DNA of 45,130 nt from Escherichia phage vB_EcoP_R4596, in sequence record MK373771.1, one strand, 5' to 3'. A model generated the notes under the pieces. It was not told the DNA's origin. It saw nothing but the letters and a program-made list of their open reading frames with translations, and made no database searches. Below, in pieces: positions 6,113-44,808 of the stretch (the stretch's first letter is position 1; each line of letters opens with the position of its first letter). Both the position numbers and the translations under genes were made by a program.

Positions 6113-6135
6113 TATTTACCGGACACTATAGGAGA
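6113..6135 (+). promoter_or_regulatory. Phage-RNAP promoter
   Basis: TTTACCGGACACTATAGGAGAG; matches the window consensus. Confidence 0.7.
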
Positions 6136-33800: not shown

Positions 33801-34658
33801 GGTTCAGAGAAAATTGTAGCTCGCTCTATCAATAAGAGATTAAAGCAGCACTTGATGGGTGAGAGACAATTACCTAAAGCAGACCTTGAAGAAGTAGGCC
33901 TAAGTGAAGATGTCATGAAAAGACTTAAGCGTCACTTTGATGACAACCCTCTGTACGCTGAGTACAATGGAGAAAAAGTTCGTATGCTGAACTTTGATGC
34001 TATGGAGCCAGACCTGAGAGAGACAGTGGGTGTTGCTGTGCGAAGAATGTCAGGCCGTCTTATTCAACGTAACTTCATTGGCGATGAAGGTATCTGGATG
34101 AATAAATGGTGGGGCAAGGCATTAACGCAGTTTAAGTCATTCTCTATTGTCTCTATTGAGAAACAGCTAATCCATGATTTACGAGGTGATAAGATTCAGG
34201 CTGCACAGATACTTGCATGGTCTACTTTACTAGGTTATGCATCTTATGCACTACAGATGCAGATGCAAGCGATTGGTAGGGAGGATAGAGACAAGTTCTT
34301 GAGGGATAAGTTTGACACACAGAACATCGCTATGGGTGTCTTTAATAAACTTCCACAAGTTGCAGGCTTTGGTTTAGCTGGTGATGCTTTGGCAACCTTT
34401 GGCCTAATGCCAGACTCCATGATGCAAGCACCGGGACGCATGGGTTTCCGTCAGCAAGGCTTTGGGGATTTGGTAGCAGGTGCTGGTGTAATAAGTGATA
34501 CAGTTAATTTGTCACAAGCACTGGTTAAGTATGCCAGTGGAGACGATGATGTCTCTACGAGGCAGTTGGTAGACAAGGTTCGTCGCCTTGTTCCTTTGGC
34601 AAATACTATTGGTGTGGGTCAGATGACTAAAGCCAGTGTAGATTTATTGGAGGATTGA
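30855..34658 (+). CDS. Large internal virion protein (gp16-like, 1267 aa)
   Basis: Size and position match T7 gp16; GGAGG ribosome-binding site. Confidence 0.8.
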   Translation: MVDSINQNWVAVTQRKLPPTFSQIAEAERKAEAQRANDKVFQTALESEWALYGGQRAYERHTTEFAEQEGYEVPESTKDELSKLYGYEIAQDIVKNVKSPEELQFRMSNAAADKDRADILARNGFTGFSAQIAAGILDPVGWAASLVAAPVAGAVKVGRLGRIIKTAALSGAENAALEAILAQGDYQRGVDDVLAAAGFGMIMGGTIGAATRERIASAGSRTAAERADAVVDDLDTVVKGADEFDSSAARAVREAMEYDAYMAARNYEPLRAREVDADMAILSHTDNLKANASVRMSASEKGQLKKQIRQLEAEAATLKGKKIDTVAEAAAAKGAPKSAADRLDLDVQKKALARRFDEPLADLQARLDELNAKLSRVNNVGKAKEELKRFSSLSREEQIKELGLDAPVRKVEMTRAVRDAIDAIRAERKKTPTEIHAEQVAEDAIKQRADDSVGAKRVEGSEIAGEQFDLSKNMEELMDDLAREAYQSEVRPINLKGLGSVSSVILNSENPVFRGLGLRLLENAQGGAYQGKTASILSDVYGNLIRHAERNRYNDGFSQFIKDNNLRAVDYLNPATTRDFNNQIYTAIVRGIPEDTPRGVKLAAEGIADKLKKALEIRKQAGERGFEDVQSAKDYIPVIYDGIKITEAVNKLGSSEAVIHLLSKGYQTGKYKLGKKAADALAKVQYIRASDSTLSSRVAFDRVVSQQQQAQLIEDLKRAGVPDHIIDNFIEGTELAEMAESVSNRAKASMGINTQAEYGGLKVQDLLNTNVGELAENYGKEAAGGAALAAMGFPTRQSVLNAIDAAERAGRNMAGSNAKAIKQLRAEAEMLRDAVKLIYGNTIDADPNSGIVRGTRRVREITGLLRLGQMGFAQIPELARAISKMGLGTVLKSIPATKFLRSRAARKGGTAQGELLEPELREMEELLGYIGEDNWLTGWNVRHDEFGETADNLGKLSAIIDNGLAMGSRINTILSGFKAVQGGSEKIVARSINKRLKQHLMGERQLPKADLEEVGLSEDVMKRLKRHFDDNPLYAEYNGEKVRMLNFDAMEPDLRETVGVAVRRMSGRLIQRNFIGDEGIWMNKWWGKALTQFKSFSIVSIEKQLIHDLRGDKIQAAQILAWSTLLGYASYALQMQMQAIGREDRDKFLRDKFDTQNIAMGVFNKLPQVAGFGLAGDALATFGLMPDSMMQAPGRMGFRQQGFGDLVAGAGVISDTVNLSQALVKYASGDDDVSTRQLVDKVRRLVPLANTIGVGQMTKASVDLLED

Positions 34659-37600
34659 TGAGTTATACATATACAGACCATGTAGCTAATGGCTCACAGG
34701 TTACATTCCCTTTTCGTTTTGCAGGCAGAGATAAGGCATACATTAGTGCGACAGATGTCCAAGTGGGTTTTGTAGAAGCAGGCACTTGGCTGCCAGCAAC
34801 AGGTTGGACGCTAAGTGGCACCAATCAGATCACTTTCTTAACCCCACCGACAGAAGGTAAACAAATACGAATCAGACGTATTGTAGATAAAATAAACCCA
34901 TATGCTTACTTCGAGCGGGGTAATGTTTTAGATATTAACTCTTTAAATAACTCATTCATTAAGAACCTGCAAGTCAGTCAAGAAATCCTTGATGGCTTCT
35001 TCCCAGAAGGTTTCTACTTCAAGACAGACTTAGACATGGGTGGTCATAAGATTATAAACCTACATGAGGGTTCTGAGTCAGGTGATGCTGTAAATTATGA
35101 TCAGTTTAAAGAGTTATCAGACCGCGTTAATGAGATTGAATCAGATTTAACAGGTTTGTCTCACAGAACAGTACCTATGTACTATATCGCAACTGGTGGA
35201 GAGTCACGTTGGGAGATCGGTCACTGGACTTTCGACGCTGCAATATTGTTTATTAATGGTGTATTCCAGAACCAAAACCTAGGAGCTTTTACCATCAGCA
35301 ACAACGGTTTTAACTTTGCAGAACCATTGCAGAAGGGGGATGAAGTATATGCCCTTGTAGGAAGCCGCATTGCAGCACCCGATGAGTATGTAACAATCTC
35401 TGACTTGAAAGACCCAGATAAAGCATGGAGGCTAATTGGACGTAAGTACCCATTTGCGACAGATGGAACTTTTATGTCAAAAGTGGTACATGATGTAGAC
35501 TACTCCAATATCTTCATTGGAGCATCAGGACTTAGTCAAGGCTTCTGTATTGTAGACACTCCGCAAGGTGCTCGCATGTTCTTCCATCAACCTATCCCAA
35601 GCACTAATAAGGTTCGTTTCGTTGAAACAACCTTTAACCCTGAAGGGGATAATGAAAATCCTTCTGTTATTTCATTCAGCCAGGAACTGGATGATATTGG
35701 ACACCAGACTGTGTGTGGTGTATATGAGGCGGGGGGTGTGCGTTTGTACACCTTGAGTGCAGATGAAAAATCTTATTATATCATAGATTGGTTAGGTAAT
35801 AATACGTCTAATACACATATGCGTAAGGTGCAGATCCCTACGGAGGGTATCTACTCTAAGGACCTATTTGTCTCAGTGGGCATGTCAGAAGATACTAAAA
35901 CGCTGGTATTCCATGCAACCACCAATACTCAGGCTTTTGGTAACAAGGATGATGCGAGAGCTATTTACCTCTTCGATAGAAAAACATTGGATTCAACCTC
36001 AACTAGAGGTCTTAAGCGTAGATTCGAAGTAGGAGCACCTGCTGCACCAGATATGGCCTTCCAAGGGGTTGCTTGTGATGACCGCTTCTTGTATATATAT
36101 CATGGATATAATGGTGTCCTGCTGTCTCACAAGATCTCCGTCTTCACCCTCTCAGGGGAGCATGTACGGGATATTCCCGTTGATAGTGTGCGTGTAAAAT
36201 ATGGAGAAAGGATGTATGGTGACGCAGATTTAGGATACCCTGTGTTGCAGGAACCGGAAGGTTTGGCAATGTATAAAGGGAAACTTTATATGTTGTGCAT
36301 GGATTTCTGGTACAAAAATGCAAGTGTAGTTACTTTCGCTGGAAGGACTTTTGCTACAAGAAAATCTTCAGCGTTTTCTGGGTACAGCCCATTACAATCC
36401 TCATACTGGACACCTACGAACCTAATACCACCTACGGGTGCACCAGAGTATAACAAGACTGCTACTTATTCCTGCTCTAATGCTACTAAGCTCAGTAAAG
36501 CTATTGTTAGCTTAGAAATAGATGATGGCACAGGCTTCCCTGCAAGTGTTGGGTGTTCTTTGCCAGAGAGTAGCGCCAGTGTATACCTAAACAACCGAGC
36601 GATGAATATGGCTATTGGCCCGAATGAAAACTTCCAGTTTGGGGTATTTCACCAGAACCTACAGTCATACAAAAACCTGTTACAGCTCAATAGAGAGAAC
36701 CCAAATACGGATGGATCAGCGGCTGTGTGGAGGTTGTTCGGAGGTGCGTTCACAGATGACATTCAGAATGAAAGATTTGTTCAGATTAAGCATAGACTTA
36801 ATCCCACACAAGATGCCATGGAGCTTCGTGCGGATGTTGACCTTACGAGCGGTGGTGGGATTAACTTGTATTCTATGAACGACTCTGCCTCTCCTGGTCG
36901 AGTAAGGCTATATTGTACTGACGGGTATTCTTATTGGTCAGCTCTACTGAGTCCTGCATCCCCATCTTTTCACCCTGATCAAGATAAGACTCTAAACTTA
37001 GGTACAGCAAACAACCGTTGGAACCTAGTCCATTGTCAAGGTATCCGTATCATCTCTAACGACGAGTTACAGAAGCAAGTCTTTCTTGAAACTACCCGTA
37101 AAAAAGGTGCACTACAGATCTCCACTTCCGGCAATCTAGGGGTGTGGGATAGTAGCGCAGGTACTTATGTTGTGGCAACCAGACCTGATGGTACAGGCTT
37201 TTCACAGGTAGAGATGAGCTTCAAAGGTGATGTTTTTCCTGAAATAAATAATACTTACAATTTAGGTCGTGAGAATAAGGCATGGGCTAATGCCTACTTT
37301 CAAAACGCACCGACTGTTGTCTGTGATGCCAGACTTAAAACAGATGCTAGGGAGTTAACAGCCGCAGAGAAATCCGCATTCTTAGAGATCTCTAAACTTC
37401 CGGCAGTTTGGCAATGGCTTGCTAAACTGGAAGTAGAAGGAGAGGATGCCCGCTTACACTCTGGATGTACTGTCCAAGCTGCTATCTCGGTTATGGAGAA
37501 ACATGGCCTAGATTGGACTAAGTATAGTGCTTTCTGTTATGACAAATGGGATGCCAAGGAGGCTGTCTATGATATAGTGGATGGTAAGGCTATCCTTGTT

Positions 37601-37741
37601 GAAGAGGCAGTTGAGGCTGGCGACCGTTATCGTCTTCGTAGAGAAGAGCTGATGTGGTGGTGCATGAAGGCACAGAATGCTTGGATTGAATCTATTGAGG
37701 GGAGGCTGGCGAAATTAGAAGATAAACTCAAGGAGGTGTAA
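34658..37741 (+). CDS. Tail fiber with T7 gp17-like N-terminal anchor and C-terminal intramolecular chaperone-like (peptidase S74-type) domain
   Basis: N-terminus YTYTDHVANGSQVTFPFRF...ISATDVQV...IRIRRIV follows the T7 gp17 adaptor pattern; C-terminal CDARLKTDARELTAAEKSAFLEISKL resembles the SDxRxK autoprocessing motif. Confidence 0.8.
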   Translation: MSYTYTDHVANGSQVTFPFRFAGRDKAYISATDVQVGFVEAGTWLPATGWTLSGTNQITFLTPPTEGKQIRIRRIVDKINPYAYFERGNVLDINSLNNSFIKNLQVSQEILDGFFPEGFYFKTDLDMGGHKIINLHEGSESGDAVNYDQFKELSDRVNEIESDLTGLSHRTVPMYYIATGGESRWEIGHWTFDAAILFINGVFQNQNLGAFTISNNGFNFAEPLQKGDEVYALVGSRIAAPDEYVTISDLKDPDKAWRLIGRKYPFATDGTFMSKVVHDVDYSNIFIGASGLSQGFCIVDTPQGARMFFHQPIPSTNKVRFVETTFNPEGDNENPSVISFSQELDDIGHQTVCGVYEAGGVRLYTLSADEKSYYIIDWLGNNTSNTHMRKVQIPTEGIYSKDLFVSVGMSEDTKTLVFHATTNTQAFGNKDDARAIYLFDRKTLDSTSTRGLKRRFEVGAPAAPDMAFQGVACDDRFLYIYHGYNGVLLSHKISVFTLSGEHVRDIPVDSVRVKYGERMYGDADLGYPVLQEPEGLAMYKGKLYMLCMDFWYKNASVVTFAGRTFATRKSSAFSGYSPLQSSYWTPTNLIPPTGAPEYNKTATYSCSNATKLSKAIVSLEIDDGTGFPASVGCSLPESSASVYLNNRAMNMAIGPNENFQFGVFHQNLQSYKNLLQLNRENPNTDGSAAVWRLFGGAFTDDIQNERFVQIKHRLNPTQDAMELRADVDLTSGGGINLYSMNDSASPGRVRLYCTDGYSYWSALLSPASPSFHPDQDKTLNLGTANNRWNLVHCQGIRIISNDELQKQVFLETTRKKGALQISTSGNLGVWDSSAGTYVVATRPDGTGFSQVEMSFKGDVFPEINNTYNLGRENKAWANAYFQNAPTVVCDARLKTDARELTAAEKSAFLEISKLPAVWQWLAKLEVEGEDARLHSGCTVQAAISVMEKHGLDWTKYSAFCYDKWDAKEAVYDIVDGKAILVEEAVEAGDRYRLRREELMWWCMKAQNAWIESIEGRLAKLEDKLKEV

Positions 37742-37935
37742 TGATAAACTCCGAACTGGTAGATAATGGTGTGAAGCTGGCGCCACCTGCATTAGTCTCA
37801 GGTGGGTACTTCCTCGGTATCAGTTGGGACAATTGGGTACTGATAGCAACATTCATTTATACAGTGTTGCAGATTGGCGATTGGTTCTATACTAAATATA
37901 CAATATGGAGGAATAAGCATGAGCGTGCACAATAA
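37741..37935 (+). CDS. Class II holin (T7 gp17.5-like)
   Basis: DNWVLIATFIYTVLQIGDWFYTK resembles T7 gp17.5 NEWFYVAAIAYTVVQIGAKVVDK as recalled; follows the tail fiber gene. Confidence 0.7.
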   Translation: MINSELVDNGVKLAPPALVSGGYFLGISWDNWVLIATFIYTVLQIGDWFYTKYTIWRNKHERAQ

Positions 37936-38218
37936 ACATGCAGCCACAGAGGATGAAGTAGGCATCCTTCATGGCGCTATTACGAAGATGTTTAATAAGA
38001 AAGCACAGGCTATACTGGACACTATAGAAGAAGACCCTGCTTCTGCTATGCACTTAGTGTCAGGTAAGGATATTGGAGCCATGTGTAAGTGGGTTTTAGA
38101 TAATGGCATTACTGCAACCCCTGCTGCACAGCAGGAAGAATCTAAGTTGTCTAAGCGTCTCAAGGCTATCAGAGAGGCGTCCAGTGGTAAGATCATTCAG
38201 TTTACTAAGGAGGATTAA
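37919..38218 (+). CDS. Terminase small subunit (gp18-like)
   Basis: Position immediately upstream of and overlapping terminase large; GGAGGA ribosome-binding site before ATG 37919. Confidence 0.55.
   Translation: MSVHNKHAATEDEVGILHGAITKMFNKKAQAILDTIEEDPASAMHLVSGKDIGAMCKWVLDNGITATPAAQQEESKLSKRLKAIREASSGKIIQFTKED
38010..38032 (+). promoter_or_regulatory. Phage-RNAP promoter inside the terminase small gene
   Basis: CTATACTGGACACTATAGAAGAAG. Confidence 0.6.
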
Positions 38219-40113
38219 TGGCTAAGGCAAGAGAATCACAAGCGGAGGCTCTTGCCAGATGGGAGATGCTACACGAGTTACAGCAGACCTTCCCTTATAC
38301 GGCAGAAGGTTTGCTTCTCTTTGCTGATACAGTTATTCATAATTTAATTGCAGGTAGTCCTCATCTGATTCGTATGCAGGCAGACATCTTGAAGTTCCTA
38401 TTCTATGGGCACAAGTATCGCCTCATCGAAGCGCCCCGTGGTATCGCTAAAACTACGCTGGCAGCAATCTATACGGTGTTCCGTATCATTCATGAGCCTC
38501 ATAAGCGTATCATGGTTGTATCCCAAAACGCCAAGCGAGCAGAGGAAATTGCAGGTTGGGTGGTCAAAATCTTCCGAGGATTGGACTTCCTAGAGTTTAT
38601 GCTGCCAGACATCTACGCTGGCGACCGTGCATCCGTTAAGGCATTCGAGATTCACTATACACTGCGTGGAAGCGACAAGTCCCCTTCTGTATCCTGCTAC
38701 TCTATTGAAGCAGGTATGCAGGGTGCTCGTGCAGACATCATTCTAGCAGATGACGTTGAATCTATGCAGAATGCGCGTACCGCAGCAGGCCGTGCATTAC
38801 TTGAGGAATTGACCAAGGAATTTGAATCTATCAACCAGTTTGGTGATATCATCTACCTTGGTACTCCTCAGAACGTCAACTCAATCTATAATAACCTTCC
38901 GGCTCGTGGCTATTCCGTGCGTATCTGGACGGCTCGCTATCCTTCTGTAGAGCAGGAGCAATGCTATGGTGACTTTCTTGCACCTATGATCGTGCAAGAT
39001 ATGAAGGATAACCCAGCCTTGCGAACAGGTTATGGCTTAGATGGTAACAGCGGAGCACCTTGTGCCCCTGAGATGTATGACGATGACGTACTGATTGAGA
39101 AGGAAATATCTCAGGGTGCTGCTAAGTTCCAGCTTCAGTTCATGCTTAACACTCGCATGATGGATGCGGATAGATACCCATTACGCATAAACAATCTAAT
39201 CTTCACCTCGTTTGGTACAGAGGAAGTTCCTGTGATGCCTACTTGGAGTAATGACTCCATCAACATCATTGGTGATGCGCCTAAGTATGGTAACAAGCCT
39301 ACAGATTTCATGTACAGACCTGTAGCTCGCCCATACGAATGGGGTGCTGTCTCCCGCAAGATTATGTATATTGACCCTGCTGGTGGCGGTAAGAACGGAG
39401 ATGAAACGGGTGTAGCCATCGTATTCCTGCATGGCACGTTCATTTATGTGTATCAGTGCTTTGGTGTACCTGGCGGATACCGAGAATCGTCCCTGAATCG
39501 CATTGTGCAGGCCGCAAAGCAGGCAGGGGTTAAAGAGGTATTCATTGAGAAAAACTTTGGTCATGGCGCGTTTGAGGCCGTTATAAAGCCATACTTTGAA
39601 CGAGAATGGCCTGTGACTATTGAAGAGGATTATGCCACTGGTCAGAAAGAACTCCGTATCATTGAGACACTGGAGCCGCTGATGACTGCGCATAGGCTTA
39701 TCTTCAATGCTGAGATGGTCAAGTCGGATTTCGCTTCAGTACAGAATTACCCTCTGGAATTGCGGATGTCTTATAGTTTGTTCCACCAAATGTCGAACAT
39801 CACTATTGAGAAGAACAGCCTTAGGCATGATGACCGCTTAGACGCTCTGTATGGCGCTGTGCGTCAATTAACTTCCCAGATAGACTATGACGAGGTTACT
39901 CGAATTAATCGCCTCAGAGCGCAGGAGATGCGCGATTATATACAGGCGATGAATACACCTAAACTTCGTCGGGCTATGCTGTACGGCGATTATGGTGATG
40001 AGCGAAGAACAACCAACACCTCCTTAGCGATGCAGCAGCGGGTTTACGGTCAGAATTGGAGGAGCCGCTCTGGGTCTAGAAATACACTTTCCTCAAGGAT
40101 TTCAAGGATTTAG
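38218..40113 (+). CDS. Terminase large subunit (gp19-like, 631 aa)
   Basis: Size and position; ATPase-like segments (IILADDVESM Walker B-like); AAGGAGG ribosome-binding site. Confidence 0.88.
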   Translation: MAKARESQAEALARWEMLHELQQTFPYTAEGLLLFADTVIHNLIAGSPHLIRMQADILKFLFYGHKYRLIEAPRGIAKTTLAAIYTVFRIIHEPHKRIMVVSQNAKRAEEIAGWVVKIFRGLDFLEFMLPDIYAGDRASVKAFEIHYTLRGSDKSPSVSCYSIEAGMQGARADIILADDVESMQNARTAAGRALLEELTKEFESINQFGDIIYLGTPQNVNSIYNNLPARGYSVRIWTARYPSVEQEQCYGDFLAPMIVQDMKDNPALRTGYGLDGNSGAPCAPEMYDDDVLIEKEISQGAAKFQLQFMLNTRMMDADRYPLRINNLIFTSFGTEEVPVMPTWSNDSINIIGDAPKYGNKPTDFMYRPVARPYEWGAVSRKIMYIDPAGGGKNGDETGVAIVFLHGTFIYVYQCFGVPGGYRESSLNRIVQAAKQAGVKEVFIEKNFGHGAFEAVIKPYFEREWPVTIEEDYATGQKELRIIETLEPLMTAHRLIFNAEMVKSDFASVQNYPLELRMSYSLFHQMSNITIEKNSLRHDDRLDALYGAVRQLTSQIDYDEVTRINRLRAQEMRDYIQAMNTPKLRRAMLYGDYGDERRTTNTSLAMQQRVYGQNWRSRSGSRNTLSSRISRI

Positions 40114-40137
40114 TATTTACTGGACACTATAGGAGGA
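40114..40137 (+). promoter_or_regulatory. Phage-RNAP promoter followed by AT-rich TAGGT-repeat region
   Basis: GTATTTACTGGACACTATAGGAGGAAG. Confidence 0.75.
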
Positions 40138-40271
40138 AGACCAAGAGAGTAAAAGGAATATTATAGGATAATATAGGATTACCTAGGTTATATAGGTGTA
40201 CCTTAGTATGGGTGTACTCCTGTACACCCTATTCTTACTTACTATTTACTTATACGTATAAGGAGTATTAG

Positions 40272-40553
40272 ATGGCTAATGATTATAGTAATCAGCCCTT
40301 AACTGGTCGCTATGACCGTAAACAGATTACACCAACTAGTGAAGCATTAATGCTCCCTGTTGTTACAGAGGAGTCTATTAAGAAGAAAGCCAATGTTATC
40401 AATGATGCAACCAAATCTGGTAAACAGAAAGCAGCAATGGTGTGTCGTCCTGTAGGTGGCACTCTTGAGATTGCCATTGCTACTGGTAGCAAAGAGGATG
40501 CAGATTGGTTGTCTGTTAAAATGGATGGCGTTGGTTTTATTACACCGGCTTAA
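40272..40553 (+). CDS. Paralog 1 of a tandem small-protein triad (93 aa), unknown function
   Basis: AAGGAG ribosome-binding site; shares KKK..IN....SGKQKAAMV...G.LEIAIATGS with the next two ORFs. Confidence 0.65.
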   Translation: MANDYSNQPLTGRYDRKQITPTSEALMLPVVTEESIKKKANVINDATKSGKQKAAMVCRPVGGTLEIAIATGSKEDADWLSVKMDGVGFITPA

Positions 40554-40570
40554 TAAAAGGAGAAGATAAT

Positions 40571-40858
40571 ATGTCTAAGTATGGCGATGCAGGTACGACT
40601 ACTGGTCAGGCTTTTCGTGTAAAAGCAGTACAAACTATTGCAACTGCAATCCCTATGCCTATCGTGGCAGAAGCTGACCTTAAAAAGAAAGATCATCCAA
40701 TTAATATTGAACACCTATCTGGTAAGCAGAAAGGTGCTATGGTGGTTGTAGATAAAGGAGATAATAGCCTTTATATTGCTATTGCACGTGGTTCTGCACC
40801 AACTGACCAGTGGGATGTAACTACTATGGAAGCTGTACCTGTAACACCAGGAGCTTAA
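40571..40858 (+). CDS. Paralog 2 of the triad (95 aa)
   Basis: AAAGGAGA ribosome-binding site; DLKKKDHPINIEHLSGKQKGAMVVV...LYIAIARGSAPTDQW. Confidence 0.65.
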   Translation: MSKYGDAGTTTGQAFRVKAVQTIATAIPMPIVAEADLKKKDHPINIEHLSGKQKGAMVVVDKGDNSLYIAIARGSAPTDQWDVTTMEAVPVTPGA

Positions 40859-40859
40859 T

Positions 40860-41549
40860 ATGCTGGGAGTAACAGGACAACGCAATAAGAATGTAGCCAC
40901 CAAAGTAGTGGCTGATTTAGCTACTGCTGCTACTGTCGAGGAATTACGAGACACACATAACTCTATTAACCGTGCTGACCTTTCTGGTAAACAAGAAGGT
41001 TCTGTTGTTCTTGTTAAGAAAGAGGATGGCAACTATTCTATCTTTGTAGCAACAGGTAGCAAGCCTACTGATGTTTGGAAAGAGTTGTCTCCAACAATAC
41101 CAGAGCAAGAGATGCCTGCTGAATATATTGATATGGTTGATATTCAAATTCATCAAGACTCTGCAAGTAACTTACGTATGGATTCTTCTCGCACGAGCTT
41201 AATACAAACACCAATGTGGGATACTGAAGGTGAATTGCTATTCCGTAATACCCTGAGCGCAACATGTTCTTGTACCATTCTTGCTGATGGTGCATCTGGT
41301 GTTCGTCAGGATTTTAATTTTAAGATTAATGGAATCTTAGAGCAAGAAGAGCAGTATTATGACATTGACACTCTTATGTGCTCTATTCATTCTGCAACAA
41401 CAACTAATGGTCTTACACTGTGTATGCCAGATGTTAAGAGCGCAAAGACCAATAAGATGGTAGTAAAGGTCGACACTATGCAGTCATTAACAATGAGTTT
41501 TGATCTTAACTTCCTTGTTGAATGGACGTCACCTACGAGGTTACTATAA
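40860..41549 (+). CDS. Paralog 3 of the triad with about 135-aa C-terminal extension (229 aa)
   Basis: LSGKQEGSVVLV...YSIFVATGSKPTDVW at the N-terminus; AGGAG ribosome-binding site; start overlaps the previous stop. Confidence 0.65.
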   Translation: MLGVTGQRNKNVATKVVADLATAATVEELRDTHNSINRADLSGKQEGSVVLVKKEDGNYSIFVATGSKPTDVWKELSPTIPEQEMPAEYIDMVDIQIHQDSASNLRMDSSRTSLIQTPMWDTEGELLFRNTLSATCSCTILADGASGVRQDFNFKINGILEQEEQYYDIDTLMCSIHSATTTNGLTLCMPDVKSAKTNKMVVKVDTMQSLTMSFDLNFLVEWTSPTRLL

Positions 41550-41893
41550 TGCTAAACGAATACTTCAAGCGTAAAGAATTTGCTTGCCGTTGTGGGTGCG
41601 GTACATCCACTGTTGATGCTGAGTTACTACAGGTAGTAACAGATGTGCGTGAGCACTTTGGTGCTCCTGTGGTTATTACTTCTGGTCATCGTTGCGCCAA
41701 GCACAATGCTAATGTAGGTGGAGCTAAGAACTCCATGCATCTTACTGGTAAGGCTGCTGACATTAAGGTCACTGGTGTTAGCCCAATGGAGGTACGTGCG
41801 TACCTATGCAATAAGTACACTGATAAGTATGGCATTGGTGCTTATCCTACTTTTACACATATCGACGTTAGAGGTAACAAAGCACGATGGTAG
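41549..41893 (+). CDS. Endolysin, peptidase M15-like zinc peptidase
   Basis: FKRKEFACRCGCG...ITSGHRCAKHNANVGGAKNSMHLTGKAADIKV...GIGAYPTFTHIDVR matches the M15 pattern (SxH...D...H). Confidence 0.8.
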   Translation: MLNEYFKRKEFACRCGCGTSTVDAELLQVVTDVREHFGAPVVITSGHRCAKHNANVGGAKNSMHLTGKAADIKVTGVSPMEVRAYLCNKYTDKYGIGAYPTFTHIDVRGNKARW

Positions 41894-42001
41894 GTTGTGT
41901 TGCATGGTGTGAACGCATGGTTGCTAAGGCTTCAGAGGAAGGCAACTATGCAGATTGGCAGAACTATTCGACTTTATTAGCTCAATGGAAAGGGAGGTGC
42001 A

Positions 42002-42151
42002 ATGAAAAAGCTGTTTAAGTCTAAGAAGGTTGTAGGTGCACTAGTTGCACTAGCAATTGCCCTTGTTTCTGTAGGACTTGGTGTAGACCTTGGTTCTGGC
42101 ACTGAGGGGTCTGTGACAGATGTAGTTTGCCAAGTAATTACTTGTGAATAA
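42002..42151 (+). CDS. Small transmembrane protein (49 aa), candidate second holin or lysis accessory
   Basis: Strong GGGAGG ribosome-binding site; MKKLFKSKKVVGALVALAIALVSVGLGV... has one predicted transmembrane helix. Confidence 0.45.
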   Translation: MKKLFKSKKVVGALVALAIALVSVGLGVDLGSGTEGSVTDVVCQVITCE

Positions 42152-42365
42152 ATTTCTTGAAGCACTTGCAGGTCTTATTGGCCTGCTTGTTGCAGCTAAG
42201 AAGAAACAGGAAGAGAAGGAGGCACAAAGTGAAGCGAATCATGCTAGCGACAATCCTGCTGATTGGTTCGCTGACCACTTCCGGGTGTCAGCAGGCGTTA
42301 CCAGAGAAGAAGGGTGTGAAGCCGCTGAAGCCGACGCTGACGGCAGTTTACGAAGTGGACGATAA
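42144..42365 (+). CDS. Putative i-spanin (Rz-like, short)
   Basis: N-terminal hydrophobic helix FLEALAGLIGLLVAA then charged region; overlaps the downstream lipoprotein ORF; GTG start without clear ribosome-binding site. Confidence 0.3.
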   Translation: MNKFLEALAGLIGLLVAAKKKQEEKEAQSEANHASDNPADWFADHFRVSAGVTREEGCEAAEADADGSLRSGR

Positions 42366-42438
42366 GGTATGCTTCAGTAAGCCTGACGCTACACAATTAG
42401 GTTTGTATATTCTTTCGCTAGAACGCGGGTATAATTAA
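42241..42438 (+). CDS. Putative o-spanin (Rz1-like lipoprotein, 65 aa)
   Basis: MLATILLIGSLTTSGC lipobox-like signal; Pro/Lys-rich body; +1 frame overlapping the Rz-like ORF. Confidence 0.4.
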   Translation: MLATILLIGSLTTSGCQQALPEKKGVKPLKPTLTAVYEVDDKVCFSKPDATQLGLYILSLERGYN

Positions 42439-42465
42439 TACATAACGTTATGTATCAGTGTCTTA

Positions 42466-42489
42466 TGATTTACTGGACACTATAGAAGG
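42466..42489 (+). promoter_or_regulatory. Phage-RNAP promoter upstream of the tailspike
   Basis: GATTTACTGGACACTATAGAAGGG followed by 5' hairpin CCGCTC-GTTTGA-GCGGAC. Confidence 0.75.
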
Positions 42490-42570
42490 GATAAAGATAG
42501 TGCCGCTCGTTTGAGCGGACTATTACTAGCCAATCTTCATAGGGAGGATTGGGAAGTAATAGGAGAATTT

Positions 42571-44391
42571 ATGGCTAAACTAACGAGAGTCACTGACTGG
42601 CTTGTTAAGGTGAAGTCTAGACTCATTGGTGCAGTAGAGAGATTGCTTGAAGATAAGCTATCTGACATGGTTAGTGTTAAAGATTTTGGTGCTAAAGGCG
42701 ATGGTGTTACAGATGATACACAAGCCTTCCTTGCAGCTTACAATGCTAAGAAGCAAACAGGAGGTAAGATCTACATACCGGAAGGTACTTACATTGCTTA
42801 CAATATCCCACTAGACAGTGGTATTTATTGGCAAGGTGCTGGTGTGGGTGCAACGACCATAACACAACCTAATGGTAACAACAAAGATATCTTTGTAACC
42901 AGAGACTTTAATACCCTCACAGGTGTTGGTTATCTTAAGGATGCACCTATTGGCTTCGGCATCAAAGATCTAACTGTTGATGGTAATTATCTTGCAGATT
43001 ATAAGAGTGCCGCCATTGGTGGTGACACTGTTATGAATAACGAGAAAGGCTATGGAGTTAAGATCTTTGGCTCTAAGTACACTATAGACATTGAGATAGT
43101 CAACTGTGCTCAGGTAGGTTTCTACAGCGAAGCTGGCGACTATACAGGTTATGGTGATGAGCAGGCTTGTCATGTGAACTTACGTGGTAGGGTCTTCGGG
43201 AAAGAAGCAATCGTGCATCGTGGCCCAGCTGACATAGAGTTTGGTCAGGTATTTATGGGGTCTGCTGCATGGTTGCCTACCCTAGCACAGCGCAGATCTA
43301 ATCTTGTCATGTCTGAACTCTTTGAAGGTGAACCTGTTCATGTCATGGTTACAGATGAGACAGAGGGTTATCATGGTCATCATGAGTTTGAGACTATGCA
43401 CCTTTATGGCAACCTGTCTGGTTATGGATATTATGCCAAAGGCACTGGTCGTCTGAAAGGCAACCATCTCATTTGTGAGAACTGTCGTGGTGGGTTCAAG
43501 TCAGATACCCGTACATGGGGTAAGATTAGTCTGTTAGAGTGTCATAACAATGGTCGTGCTCCATCTGCTTTAGCAGGAACTTTACCTAAGTTCTACGACA
43601 TTCATAACTTATCTCGTCAAGGTTTTGTTATTGATGCAGTAGTTCGTCGTGTTTCTGTAGAATCTTCTGAATATACTGCATTACGAGATGAAGGTCGTAA
43701 TAGTGTAGTAAGAATGTCTTACTTCGTAGCAGGTTCAGATGCAGAAGGTGCAACCTCTGGTAATATGGCAGAATTACTTAGTGAATCCTCTACGTTTGAT
43801 ATTAACTGTGTGAACACCAAAGACCATGCAGTTCTTCTGGAGGGAAAGGCTAACAAGGTTAATATTGTATCTAAGAACCACTCTGGTGACAAAGCATTGA
43901 TTAAGAGGGTAGCTGGCTCTGCTTCAGGTAACTTATCTAACTCTATAGAGATAACCTGTAATAATGCTTCCAGCATTATTCATCTTGATGGTCTTGTTAC
44001 CACTGAGCGATGGGATGTGTCTGGCTTGCTCAAAGAAGGTCAGACTATCTTCTCCTCTGATAGCTCAGTGATGGATTTGTATAACCGTGCAGTTGTTACT
44101 AACTTGTCTGTACGTATTGGTTCTAAATCCAAGAGTAGTAGAGATGTTGGTCGTGTTAATCTAGAGAATACAGCAGGGCAGAAGTCTGTTACTGTAGAGC
44201 ACAACTACTTCATTAAGCCTGATGCTTCTCAGATTACATTAGGTTGCTATGACCCTGACCCGACACTACAAGATAAGCTCAAGTACCTACGTGTAAGTAA
44301 TATCACAGATACTGACTTTACAGCAGTATACGAATTGGAGCAAGGTGAACAGCCAAGTGGCCCGATTGTTATGACTTGGGGTATCTTCTAA
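42571..44391 (+). CDS. Tailspike / putative polysaccharide depolymerase (beta-helix, pectate-lyase-like)
   Basis: VSVKDFGAKGDGVTDDTQAFLAAYNA is typical of right-handed beta-helix glycanases; likely ATG 42571 after AGGAGA (track begins at TTG 42511). Confidence 0.8.
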   Translation: MAKLTRVTDWLVKVKSRLIGAVERLLEDKLSDMVSVKDFGAKGDGVTDDTQAFLAAYNAKKQTGGKIYIPEGTYIAYNIPLDSGIYWQGAGVGATTITQPNGNNKDIFVTRDFNTLTGVGYLKDAPIGFGIKDLTVDGNYLADYKSAAIGGDTVMNNEKGYGVKIFGSKYTIDIEIVNCAQVGFYSEAGDYTGYGDEQACHVNLRGRVFGKEAIVHRGPADIEFGQVFMGSAAWLPTLAQRRSNLVMSELFEGEPVHVMVTDETEGYHGHHEFETMHLYGNLSGYGYYAKGTGRLKGNHLICENCRGGFKSDTRTWGKISLLECHNNGRAPSALAGTLPKFYDIHNLSRQGFVIDAVVRRVSVESSEYTALRDEGRNSVVRMSYFVAGSDAEGATSGNMAELLSESSTFDINCVNTKDHAVLLEGKANKVNIVSKNHSGDKALIKRVAGSASGNLSNSIEITCNNASSIIHLDGLVTTERWDVSGLLKEGQTIFSSDSSVMDLYNRAVVTNLSVRIGSKSKSSRDVGRVNLENTAGQKSVTVEHNYFIKPDASQITLGCYDPDPTLQDKLKYLRVSNITDTDFTAVYELEQGEQPSGPIVMTWGIF

Positions 44392-44422: not shown

Positions 44423-44489
44423 CGCAACTTCCCTTGAAGCAATCTAGCGATACCTTCAAGGGAATAGCTCAAGAAAGCAAGGAGGTTTG

Positions 44490-44639
44490 ATGCCGTTGAT
44501 CAAATCAGTTAAGCAATCTGCTGTACGCCAGAACACAGAAGAACTTATTCAATCAGGGCGTGACCCTAAGCAGGCTTATGCCATTGCCAAGGATGTACAA
44601 CGTCGTGCCATGAAGAAACCTTCTGCATCTTCTGCGTAA
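44490..44639 (+). CDS. Small basic protein (49 aa)
   Basis: Strong AAGGAGG ribosome-binding site; below the ORF-track length cutoff. Confidence 0.4.
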   Translation: MPLIKSVKQSAVRQNTEELIQSGRDPKQAYAIAKDVQRRAMKKPSASSA

Positions 44640-44709: not shown

Positions 44710-44808
44710 ATGGATAAGATTACTATTGATAAGCCAACATACTACCTGTTATGGGCTGGTTGTATCTTGAATGTCACAGGTTTTATCTTATGGTTGTTCA
44801 TGAAATAA
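44710..44808 (+). CDS. Small hydrophobic peptide (32 aa)
   Basis: AAGGAGG ribosome-binding site; MDKITIDKPTYYLLWAGCILNVTGFILWLFMK. Confidence 0.3.
   Translation: MDKITIDKPTYYLLWAGCILNVTGFILWLFMK

Follow-up and report, generated by a model that had tools for sequence, protein, structure and literature searches.

A selected gene overlaps the spanin-like lipoprotein gene in the split lysis system of Escherichia phage vB_EcoP_R4596

Lysis genes at two places in the window

The lysis genes of Escherichia phage vB_EcoP_R4596 (sequence record MK373771.1) were analyzed within a stretch of 45,130 nucleotides (nt), called the window throughout, as a follow-up to an earlier note that had proposed a split lysis system with two candidate holins and a tentative, overlapped pair of spanin-like genes. 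All the open reading frames (ORFs) named in that note were found, and the layout it described is borne out: the gene of a T7-type holin lies between the tail-fiber gene and the small terminase gene, and a cassette headed by an M15 endolysin gene lies past the large terminase gene, with 3.6 kb from the holin stop codon to the endolysin start at 41549. Past the endolysin gene, four small genes form a chain of overlaps (41887-42018, 42002-42151, 42144-42365 and a lipoprotein gene ending at 42438); the lysis cassette is one of five genes, not three or four (Table 1). The predicted lysis genes are the standard set of SP6-like Autographiviridae, and their split arrangement is the norm for such phages, has been in print since 2015, and is neither new nor unusual. 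What is new is the corrected gene map: the 'separated' architecture attributed to K1-5, K1E and SP6 overlooks a selected gene, encoding a protein of 73 amino acids (aa), that overlaps the lipoprotein gene.

Table 1. Positions in the window of the predicted lysis genes, their flanking promoters and the large terminase gene
Feature	Coordinates	Strand	Family match or remark
T7 gp17.5-type holin (predicted), 64 aa	37741..37935	+	PF10746, phrog_920
Large terminase gene	38218-40113		
Phage promoter (predicted)	40118..40135	+	TACTGGACACTATAGGAG, 1 mismatch; directly 3' of large terminase gene
Endolysin (predicted), Peptidase_M15_3, 114 aa	41549..41893	+	PF08291, phrog_894 'endolysin'
43-aa small soluble protein (predicted)	41887..42018	+	phrog_1312, E = 1.3e-17, no function label
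49-aa single-pass membrane protein (predicted)	42002..42151	+	phrog_4712 'holin', E = 6e-27; Shine-Dalgarno (SD) sequence GGGAGG
73-aa protein, GTG start	42144..42365	+	phrog_9219
69-aa outer-membrane lipoprotein (predicted)	42229..42438	+	phrog_8971 'Rz-like spanin', E = 8.6e-38
Phage promoter (predicted)	42471..42488	+	TACTGGACACTATAGAAG, exact consensus; between lipoprotein stop and tailspike gene

The 73-aa ORF is a selected gene

The earlier note had called its inner-membrane spanin (i-spanin) candidate unusually short and lacking a clear ribosome-binding site. Both points hold, as the 73-aa ORF begins with a GTG inside TGTGAATAA, overlaps the stop codon of the 49-aa gene by 8 nt and has no SD sequence. 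The frame was nevertheless open in every locus examined overall. Within all 29 SP6/K1-5-like loci first examined, it encodes 61-73 aa, begins with GTG and shares the 8-nt overlap with the upstream stop, and among 26 unique SP6/K1-5-like sequences no insertion or deletion occurred over 286 nt. Across the supposed gap that separates the 49-aa gene from the lipoprotein gene (42152-42228), diversity at the three codon phases of the 73-aa frame was 0.189, 0.045 and 0.323, and the Nei-Gojobori ratio of nonsynonymous to synonymous substitution rates (dN/dS) was 0.22 in this frame (0.19 in a length-matched subset), whereas the two other frames gave 1.98 and 4.13. Codons 29-47, which encode the conserved motif SDNPADWFADHFRV, gave a dN/dS of 0.09, compared with 0.84 for the lipoprotein signal peptide that these bases encode in the other frame; farther into the overlap the 73-aa tail scored 1.09 versus 0.41 for the lipoprotein, and the unshared C-terminal part of the lipoprotein scored 0.09. 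Within the overlap, constraint is divided between the two frames, and the function of the 73-aa protein lies in residues 1-47, the remaining 26 being an unconstrained by-product of the overlap.

Diverged phages retain the 73-aa protein despite differing DNA, often with an ATG start; carriers include Pantoea phage Nufs112, Klebsiella phage Kp7, Proteus phage PM93, Pectobacterium phage PP99, ECBP5, Aeromonas phage Tola, Vibrio phage JSF38 and an Edwardsiella phage. A profile search collected 121 protein clusters of the family, all 53-77 aa long, and a related-locus search with an alignment of the family returned only the same phage group. The 73-aa ORF is a real, selected gene, and the 77 bp by which SpaninDB lists the i-spanin and outer-membrane spanin (o-spanin) genes of K1-5, K1E and SP6 as 'separated' (Kongari et al., 2018, PMC6139136) are coding, being part of this overlapping gene. 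None of 46 distinct gene pairs shows an SD sequence before the 73-aa-type gene, and nearly all of these genes overlap or abut the upstream stop. Because the missing SD sequence is a family-wide trait that goes with this overlap or abutment, it is not evidence against the ORF, and the gene is probably translated by coupling to the gene upstream.

Annotation of the ORF has been uneven, as it is absent from the records of CrRp3, G3A1, ULINTec4, K1-5, K1E, LL11 and ECBP5. In the SP6 record AY288927.2, gene 48 (record positions 39607-39804) is labelled 'o-spanin' but lies in the 73-aa-type frame (MAGLLGLLLAYKKK..., no lipobox), and the true lipoprotein frame (39670-39880 in SpaninDB) was left unannotated, an apparent frame mix-up.

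The overlapping lipoprotein gene

Relative to the 73-aa gene, the lipoprotein gene is in the +1 frame, and the two overlap by 137 nt. Its GTG start at 42229, the same start as that given by SpaninDB for K1-5 and K1E, sits 6 nt after AAGGAGG (42216-42222), and the product begins MKRIMLATILLIGSLTTSG/CQQ. A TTG at 42157, which a mechanical choice of start would take, was rejected in favor of this GTG with its SD sequence and lipobox signal. The ORF had been described as Rz1-like, and all 46 distinct homologues carry a lipobox (MKRIMLATILLIGSLTTSG/C in the window) by a PROSITE-type rule. Among the 11 lineages tabulated, the residue at +2, Gln here, is Gly, Ala, Gln, Thr or Val elsewhere and never Asp, and the protein thus fits the prediction of sorting to the outer membrane; in the same lineages the mature protein (50 aa in the window) has exactly one further Cys, and its C-terminal motif, LGLYILSLERGY in the window, follows the pattern LG.YI..LERGY.

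The AlphaFold2 (AF2) model of the lipoprotein, of low confidence (mean predicted local distance difference test score, pLDDT, 57), displays a helical signal sequence, a disordered linker that contains proline, a hairpin at residues 40-49 and a helix at residues 54-66. UniRef names the protein 'O-spanin' and SpaninDB lists it in the K1-5/K1E/SP6 o-spanin family; taken together, its sequence features make it a good o-spanin candidate. We also considered the unimolecular (u-spanin) reading and rejected it, since the C-terminal LGLYILSL offers just 8 apolar residues, and AF2 models a short amphipathic helix rather than a transmembrane domain (TMD). Possible compensating changes were seen between the two overlapping products, with W41 of the 73-aa protein accompanying G58 of the lipoprotein in most lineages, and Ala or Tyr accompanying Arg in R19R and CGphi29; this hint of covariation was not used as evidence because it comes from two independent lineages only.

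Distribution of the gene pair among phages

The pair of phrog_9219 and phrog_8971 genes was found in five types of cassette: (i) in SP6-like phages and other Autographiviridae, behind the 43- and 49-aa genes and with an M15 or a lytic-transglycosylase endolysin, (ii) in Salicola phage CGphi29 and the JGI contig L075, in the order PF16080 holin, endolysin, phrog_9685 membrane protein and pair, (iii) in the Vibrio phages R19R and Rostov 7, with an amidase, a phrog_9685 membrane protein and a 58-aa homologue, the lipoprotein gene lying beyond a reverse-strand gene, (iv) in the Logan contig L072, where a holin-like protein with two TMDs is followed by the pair, and (v) in Pantoea phage Nufs112. 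Types (ii) to (iv) are without the 49-aa family. The lipoprotein gene lies in the +1 frame with an overlap of 101-161 nt in 45 of the 46 distinct combinations, Vibrio phage R19R having the two genes separated, and the lipoprotein is always paired with the 73-aa family. As a separate observation, the membrane proteins encoded upstream of the 73-aa-type gene in CGphi29-like and R19R-like phages are homologous to each other (phrog_9685), the phages being otherwise unrelated.

The 49-aa and 43-aa proteins

As the earlier note had indicated, a small transmembrane protein is encoded directly upstream of the 73-aa gene, with one strong hydrophobic segment. It consists of five Lys residues, 19 apolar residues and then a 21-aa acidic tail without Lys or Arg that ends in CQVITCE; its best 19-residue window has a Kyte-Doolittle (KD) average of 2.64 and a Hessa sum of -1.16, and C43 and C48 (CxxxxC) are invariant. 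A topology with the N-terminus in the cytoplasm and the C-terminus in the periplasm (N-in/C-out) is clearly predicted. The proposal that this protein is a second holin was not supported: it rests only on a PHROG/RefSeq label, the predicted topology and the acidic tail with two Cys residues are not holin-like, and no Pfam or NCBIfam holin model was matched. The existing labels in fact clash, as RefSeq and PHROGs have 'holin', while SpaninDB, LL11, the SP6 record AY288927.2 and Lee et al. (2015) have i-spanin or Rz. In PP99 and Nufs112 a gp17.5-type holin is present as well, so that in the genomes checked the 49-aa protein is never the sole holin candidate.

The 43-aa protein carries a conserved CxxWC...W motif. 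In all Autographiviridae loci checked, whatever their endolysin type, its gene stands between that of the endolysin and that of the 49-aa protein, and homologues in the same position occur in SP6-like, Gajwadongvirus, Nufs112, Tola and Edwardsiella phages; the protein could be a lysis regulator. Both the 49- and 43-aa proteins are conserved accessory members of the cassette. For all four small proteins (43, 49, 73 and 69 aa), the searches gave no usable Pfam or NCBIfam match.

Holin and endolysin

The protein encoded behind the fiber gene, previously described as gp17.5-like, matched PF10746 (Phage holin T7 family) over its full length (E = 7.6e-28, 96.5 bits, cut-off 25.4) and also phrog_920 'holin'. 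The ATG lies in a TAATG overlap with the stop codon of the fiber gene, with AAGGAGG upstream. The gene holds the T7 position, between the tail-fiber gene (PF03906) and the small terminase gene, and the likeliest start of the latter, 37919 (GGAGG upstream), overlaps its 3' end. We assign the protein to the gp17.5 family, holin superfamily II, with a predicted lesion-forming role. The gp17.5-type ORF46 of ECBP5/KBNP1315 caused mild growth inhibition and boosted lysis by the signal-arrest-release (SAR) endolysin of that phage (Lee et al., 2015, PMC4640515). Homologues hold the same position in Nufs112 and PP99. In the latter (KY250034.1, about 37380-37600) the gene is unannotated; its product is 41% identical to the holin of the window over 41 residues, and it lies in a 370-nt 'gap' between the tail-fiber adaptor and small terminase genes.

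The endolysin matched PF08291 with E = 5.1e-34 (117 bits), showed weak matches to PDB 1lbu (Streptomyces zinc D-Ala-D-Ala carboxypeptidase) and MepK, and its translation contains the zinc-ligand motifs SGHR, SMHLTGKAAD and FTHID. ATG 41549 is the better start, with a TAATG overlap with the upstream gene and GAGG 9 nt upstream, and the resulting 114 aa (345 nt) match the annotation in K1-5, K1E, LL11 and CrRp3; the alternative start at 41522 (123 aa) was ranked below it on the TAATG overlap, the SD sequence and the annotation of relatives. The N-terminus, MLNEYFKRKEFACRCGCGTSTVD, has no hydrophobic stretch and contains neither a signal nor a SAR sequence, and the protein is therefore predicted to be a soluble, holin-dependent enzyme.

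Discussion

The reading best supported by these data, which we hold to be somewhat likelier right than wrong, is the overlapped pair of the earlier note: a standard lysis set in which the 73-aa protein and the lipoprotein form a miniature Rz/Rz1-type pair. The 73-aa protein is favored as the partner of the lipoprotein because its gene is under selection, because the two genes have the overlapped +1 layout, and because the two families strictly co-occur also where the 49-aa gene is missing. For this pair, the analysis shows real genes under selection, the family memberships, the +1 overlap, the lipobox and the co-occurrence, but no clear i-spanin TMD. In the proposed sequence of events, the gp17.5-type holin would open the inner membrane at a programmed time; the soluble M15 endolysin, which has no export signal and therefore depends on holin lesions to reach the peptidoglycan, would pass through these lesions and cut it; and the 73-aa protein, probably translated via coupling to the 49-aa gene, would act with the lipoprotein to disrupt the outer membrane. 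We infer this disruption, together with the topology of the 73-aa protein and a physical contact of its WFxDHF motif with the LERGY terminus of the lipoprotein. Should the 73-aa protein be oriented with its C-terminus out, the combined periplasmic length of the pair would be about 105 residues, inside the 62-300 residues reported for two-component spanins.

The 73-aa protein is built from a short hydrophobic N-terminal helix, a KKK cluster, a charged helix, the conserved motif and a tail; AF2 models a helix at residues 3-36, a short helix at 38-45 and a disordered tail, with low confidence (mean pLDDT 63). Several findings weigh against its being an inner spanin. The hydrophobic segment has 12 uninterrupted apolar residues (6-13 in relatives), and its best 19-residue KD average is 1.26 (0.65-1.45 in the family) versus about 2.3-2.6 for the 49-aa protein and lambda Rz (2.63 for the latter). 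In some lineages the segment includes a charged pair (R6/D13 or E7/R14), and it is directly followed by KKK or a similar basic cluster. The short, weak segment, the charged pairs and the basic cluster make type II membrane insertion doubtful, and by hydrophobicity the protein is predicted to be a marginal transmembrane protein at best. Moreover, it showed no sequence similarity to described i-spanin families (Pfam and NCBIfam; phrog_9219 carries no function label), the family has no conserved Cys, and the tail is unconstrained and in some phages cut so that only 61 aa remain. In the literature we found no experiment that concerned the lipoprotein or any of the 43-, 49- and 73-aa proteins; the tested components are the holin and endolysin of ECBP5, the latter of the different SAR type (Lee et al., 2015, PMC4640515).

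A further point of this kind comes from Vibrio phage ICP3, which encodes a 47-aa homologue of the 49-aa protein (phrog_4712, E = 7e-23) with the same topology and C-terminal CxxxxC. Its gene is TAATG-coupled to the gene of an unrelated, acidic lipoprotein of 65 aa (phrog_10167); the two form the VP4 family of SpaninDB and lie between the small and large terminase genes, the slot in which T7 carries 18.5/18.7. ICP3 also has a 17.5 holin, and the tail-fiber-to-terminase stretch examined contained no 73-aa-type ORF. This pairing with a different lipoprotein suggests that the 49-aa family may itself be a spanin subunit.

Set against these points, the gp17.5-type holin of the window scores just 1.33 on the same 19-residue KD measure, so that the 73-aa protein may yet insert into the membrane. 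A cleavable signal peptide was considered for this protein and rejected on the grounds that there is no conserved small-x-small site across lineages and that KKK comes right after the hydrophobic stretch. Lambda Rz has more Lys and Arg residues after its TMD than before it, and the positive-inside charge bias is for that reason not decisive for the topology of the 73-aa protein. Topology prediction gave a clear N-in/C-out result for the 49-aa protein and no clear N-terminal TMD for the 73-aa protein.

We weighed three alternatives. The first, which we judge unlikely, is a three-part spanin in which a small membrane protein, from the 49-aa family here and from phrog_9685 or another small membrane protein elsewhere, anchors or inserts the 73-aa protein, which would in turn contact the lipoprotein. 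Such an arrangement would provide the convincing membrane anchor that the 73-aa protein does not have on its own. It also agrees with gene order, as in nearly every context examined a gene for a small membrane protein comes immediately before the 73-aa-type gene, which overlaps or abuts the stop of that gene (phrog_4712 in Autographiviridae, phrog_9685 in CGphi29- and R19R-like phages, the holin-like protein with two TMDs in L072). SP6-like phages and contig L075 own a separate, Pfam-recognized holin, so that the additional membrane protein is not needed in that capacity, and the 49-aa family is tied to a lipoprotein in ICP3. On the other hand, the order holin-then-spanin is common among lysis genes and the adjacency may therefore mean nothing, the upstream membrane protein of R19R and L072 may be the only holin there, contact between the three parts is conjectural, and we know of no three-part spanin that has been described.

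Slightly less probable in our estimate is the pairing found in the literature, in which the 49-aa protein is the i-spanin of the lipoprotein and the 73-aa protein, although the product of a real gene, has another role, such as that of a cytoplasm-facing holin- or antiholin-like regulator that keeps its charged C-terminal part within the cell. In the SP6-like phage KBNP1315 (= ECBP5), Lee et al. (2015, PMC4640515) described the genes for holin, endolysin, Rz and Rz1 as being in a 'separated position'; they named ORF54, of the 49-aa type, Rz and the lipoprotein, ORF55, Rz1. In SpaninDB, Kongari et al. (2018, PMC6139136) listed the 49-aa type as i-spanin for K1-5, K1E and SP6, and the LL11 and SP6 records made the same choice. 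These accounts thus have a 49-aa Rz or i-spanin followed by a 77-bp gap where we find a selected 73-aa gene overlapping the lipoprotein gene, and they predate the knowledge that the gap is a selected gene. The 49-aa protein does have the strong 19-residue transmembrane segment, preceded by five Lys residues and followed by none, and its two invariant Cys residues are predicted to be periplasmic. A weak hydrophobic segment followed by KKK would favor a C-in orientation of the 73-aa protein, and in ICP3 the T7 18.5/18.7 slot is occupied by a phrog_4712 gene and the lipoprotein gene coupled to it. Against this stands the reach of the 49-aa protein, which would place only 21 residues in the periplasm, or 71 together with the lipoprotein, and falls short in our length test; the SpaninDB curators themselves remarked 'too small?' and 'too short' on this i-spanin in K1-5, K1E and SP6 (PMC6139136). 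Nor is the 49-aa family a constant companion of the LERGY lipoprotein, as at least four other types of cassette combine this lipoprotein with the 73-aa family and have no member of the 49-aa family, and the ICP3 lipoprotein is of a different family. It is very improbable that the lipoprotein is non-lytic, with a role such as superinfection exclusion or receptor masking like Llp in T5 and the outer membrane disrupted otherwise, since the location of its gene directly upstream of the tailspike gene, the small hairpin and helix predicted for the mature protein (AF2, low confidence) in place of the unstructured proline-rich chain of Rz1, and the failure to find an experiment linking it to lysis are offset by its constant pairing with the 73-aa family, its place with the endolysin and holin genes rather than a tailspike gene in CGphi29-like phages and L072, the phage promoter at 42471 that parts it from the tailspike gene, and the lack of any other spanin candidate for these genomes in SpaninDB.

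The miniature Rz/Rz1-type pair that we favor resembles lambda Rz/Rz1 and P2 LysB/LysC in that a small lipoprotein gene overlaps its partner gene in the +1 frame, the partner combines an N-terminal hydrophobic helix with a charged, helical stretch, the lipoprotein carries an additional periplasmic Cys, and the pair ends the lysis cassette. It differs in the size of the inner partner (58-77 aa versus about 130-150 aa) and of its hydrophobic segment (6-13 versus about 20 residues), and in that the partner lacks a coiled-coil pair, Cys residues and any sequence similarity to its lambda and P2 counterparts; the lipoprotein is predicted to be partly folded (AF2, low confidence), whereas Rz1 is unstructured. 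The lysis genes of T7 comprise the 3.5 amidase among the middle genes, the 17.5 holin, and the embedded Rz/Rz1-type pair 18.5/18.7 between 18 and 19. The window shares with T7 a holin of the same Pfam family after the tail-fiber gene and the scattering of lysis genes; unlike T7, it has an M15 peptidase, and its spanin-like genes lie past the large terminase gene.

Closer likenesses are found in K1-5, K1E, SP6 and ECBP5, which have, as in the window, a gp17.5 holin past the fiber gene, and an endolysin, a membrane protein of about 49 aa and a 69-aa lipoprotein past the terminase gene, although ECBP5 has a SAR lytic transglycosylase where the window has a soluble M15 peptidase. The authors of the Pantoea phage Nufs112 study (Int J Mol Sci 2023, PMC9915841) named a homologous trio, ORF61-63, 'transmembrane protein', 'Rz-like protein' (72 aa) and 'Rz1-like protein'. 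Their reading, given as annotation only, agrees with that of the earlier note; the Rz-like gene differs in having an ATG start and in abutting the upstream gene rather than overlapping it.

Should the favored pairing be correct, the 73-aa protein would count among the smallest i-spanins that have been proposed, and among the least hydrophobic ones, and the pair would be a simple system for studying the minimum of protein needed to breach the outer membrane. A bolder proposal, which we regard as doubtful, is that phrog_9219, a family of 58-77 aa without a canonical TMD, is the partner of LERGY lipoproteins in SP6-like phages and in unrelated Vibrio, Salicola and metagenomic phages, in a scheme that departs from the Rz/Rz1 bridge, which is formed in advance and anchored at both membranes. 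If this were true, a protein overlooked or mislabelled until now would be the partner, and outer-membrane disruption would need either a separate small membrane anchor, as in the three-part arrangement, or a cytoplasmic or peripheral activator released via holin lesions. The general holin-endolysin-spanin picture is unaffected in either case. For annotation, the gain is the GTG start at 42229 for the lipoprotein and the recognition of an SD-less GTG ORF as a real gene, in a phage group whose GenBank records disagree among themselves and in one instance label the wrong frame as o-spanin. Phages of the K1-5/K1E/SP6 type serve in therapy and in work on depolymerases, so that it is useful to know which of their genes complete lysis.

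Transcription signals and neighboring genes

Region 37500-42600 was 97% identical in DNA sequence to Escherichia phages vB_EcoP-CC1 and CC2 and 85-95% identical to many Vectrevirus records (85-97% with CC1 and CC2 included); by these matches the source phage is a Vectrevirus, a K1-5/K1E/SP6-like podophage of the Autographiviridae, subfamily Molineuxvirinae. A scan with the consensus TACTGGACACTATAGAAG, allowing up to 3 mismatches, found 10 phage promoters of the SP6/K1-5 type on the + strand of the window versus 0.03 expected by chance, while scans for sigma-70 promoters and intrinsic terminators gave no more than chance level. The predicted promoter at 40118 heads the transcription unit that holds the endolysin-to-lipoprotein cassette, and the one at 42471 is its predicted downstream boundary. 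The promoter at 38013-38030 is an exact copy located within the small terminase gene and ahead of the large terminase gene, and further sites are at 6117, 8419, 12733, 13196, 14427, 17553 and 22644. Two other elements may serve as signals for RNA processing or termination: a perfect palindrome of 16 nt, TACATAACGTTATGTA (42439-42454), directly after the lipoprotein stop and ahead of the next phage promoter, and a GC-rich hairpin, GGGTGTAC-TCCT-GTACACCC (40210-40229), followed by a T-rich stretch and located 75 nt past the 40118 promoter.

Between this promoter and the endolysin gene lie three tandem paralogues (40272-40553, 40571-40858 and 40860-41549; 93, 95 and 229 aa) that have in common a domain of about 90 aa at the N-terminus (phrog_2725 and phrog_32357). 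The label that they inherited, 'acetyl-CoA acetyltransferase', found no Pfam or NCBIfam support, and homologues in related records are named 'head fiber protein' or 'minor capsid protein with Ig-domain'; for these two reasons the acetyltransferase name looks like a propagated misannotation. The fiber gene (34655-37741) encodes 1028 aa with the N-terminal adaptor domain of the T7 fiber (PF03906) and a C-terminal endosialidase-chaperone (Peptidase_S74) domain, and a second receptor-binding protein of 626 aa with a pectate-lyase-like fold is encoded at 42511-44391; a long fiber with a second tailspike is the two-tailspike arrangement typical of K1-5-like phages. Past the tailspike gene there are two small ORFs, one for a basic protein of 50 aa (44487-44639) and one for a 32-aa product with one hydrophobic segment, MDKITIDKPTYYLLWAGCILNVTGFILWLFMK (44710-44808).

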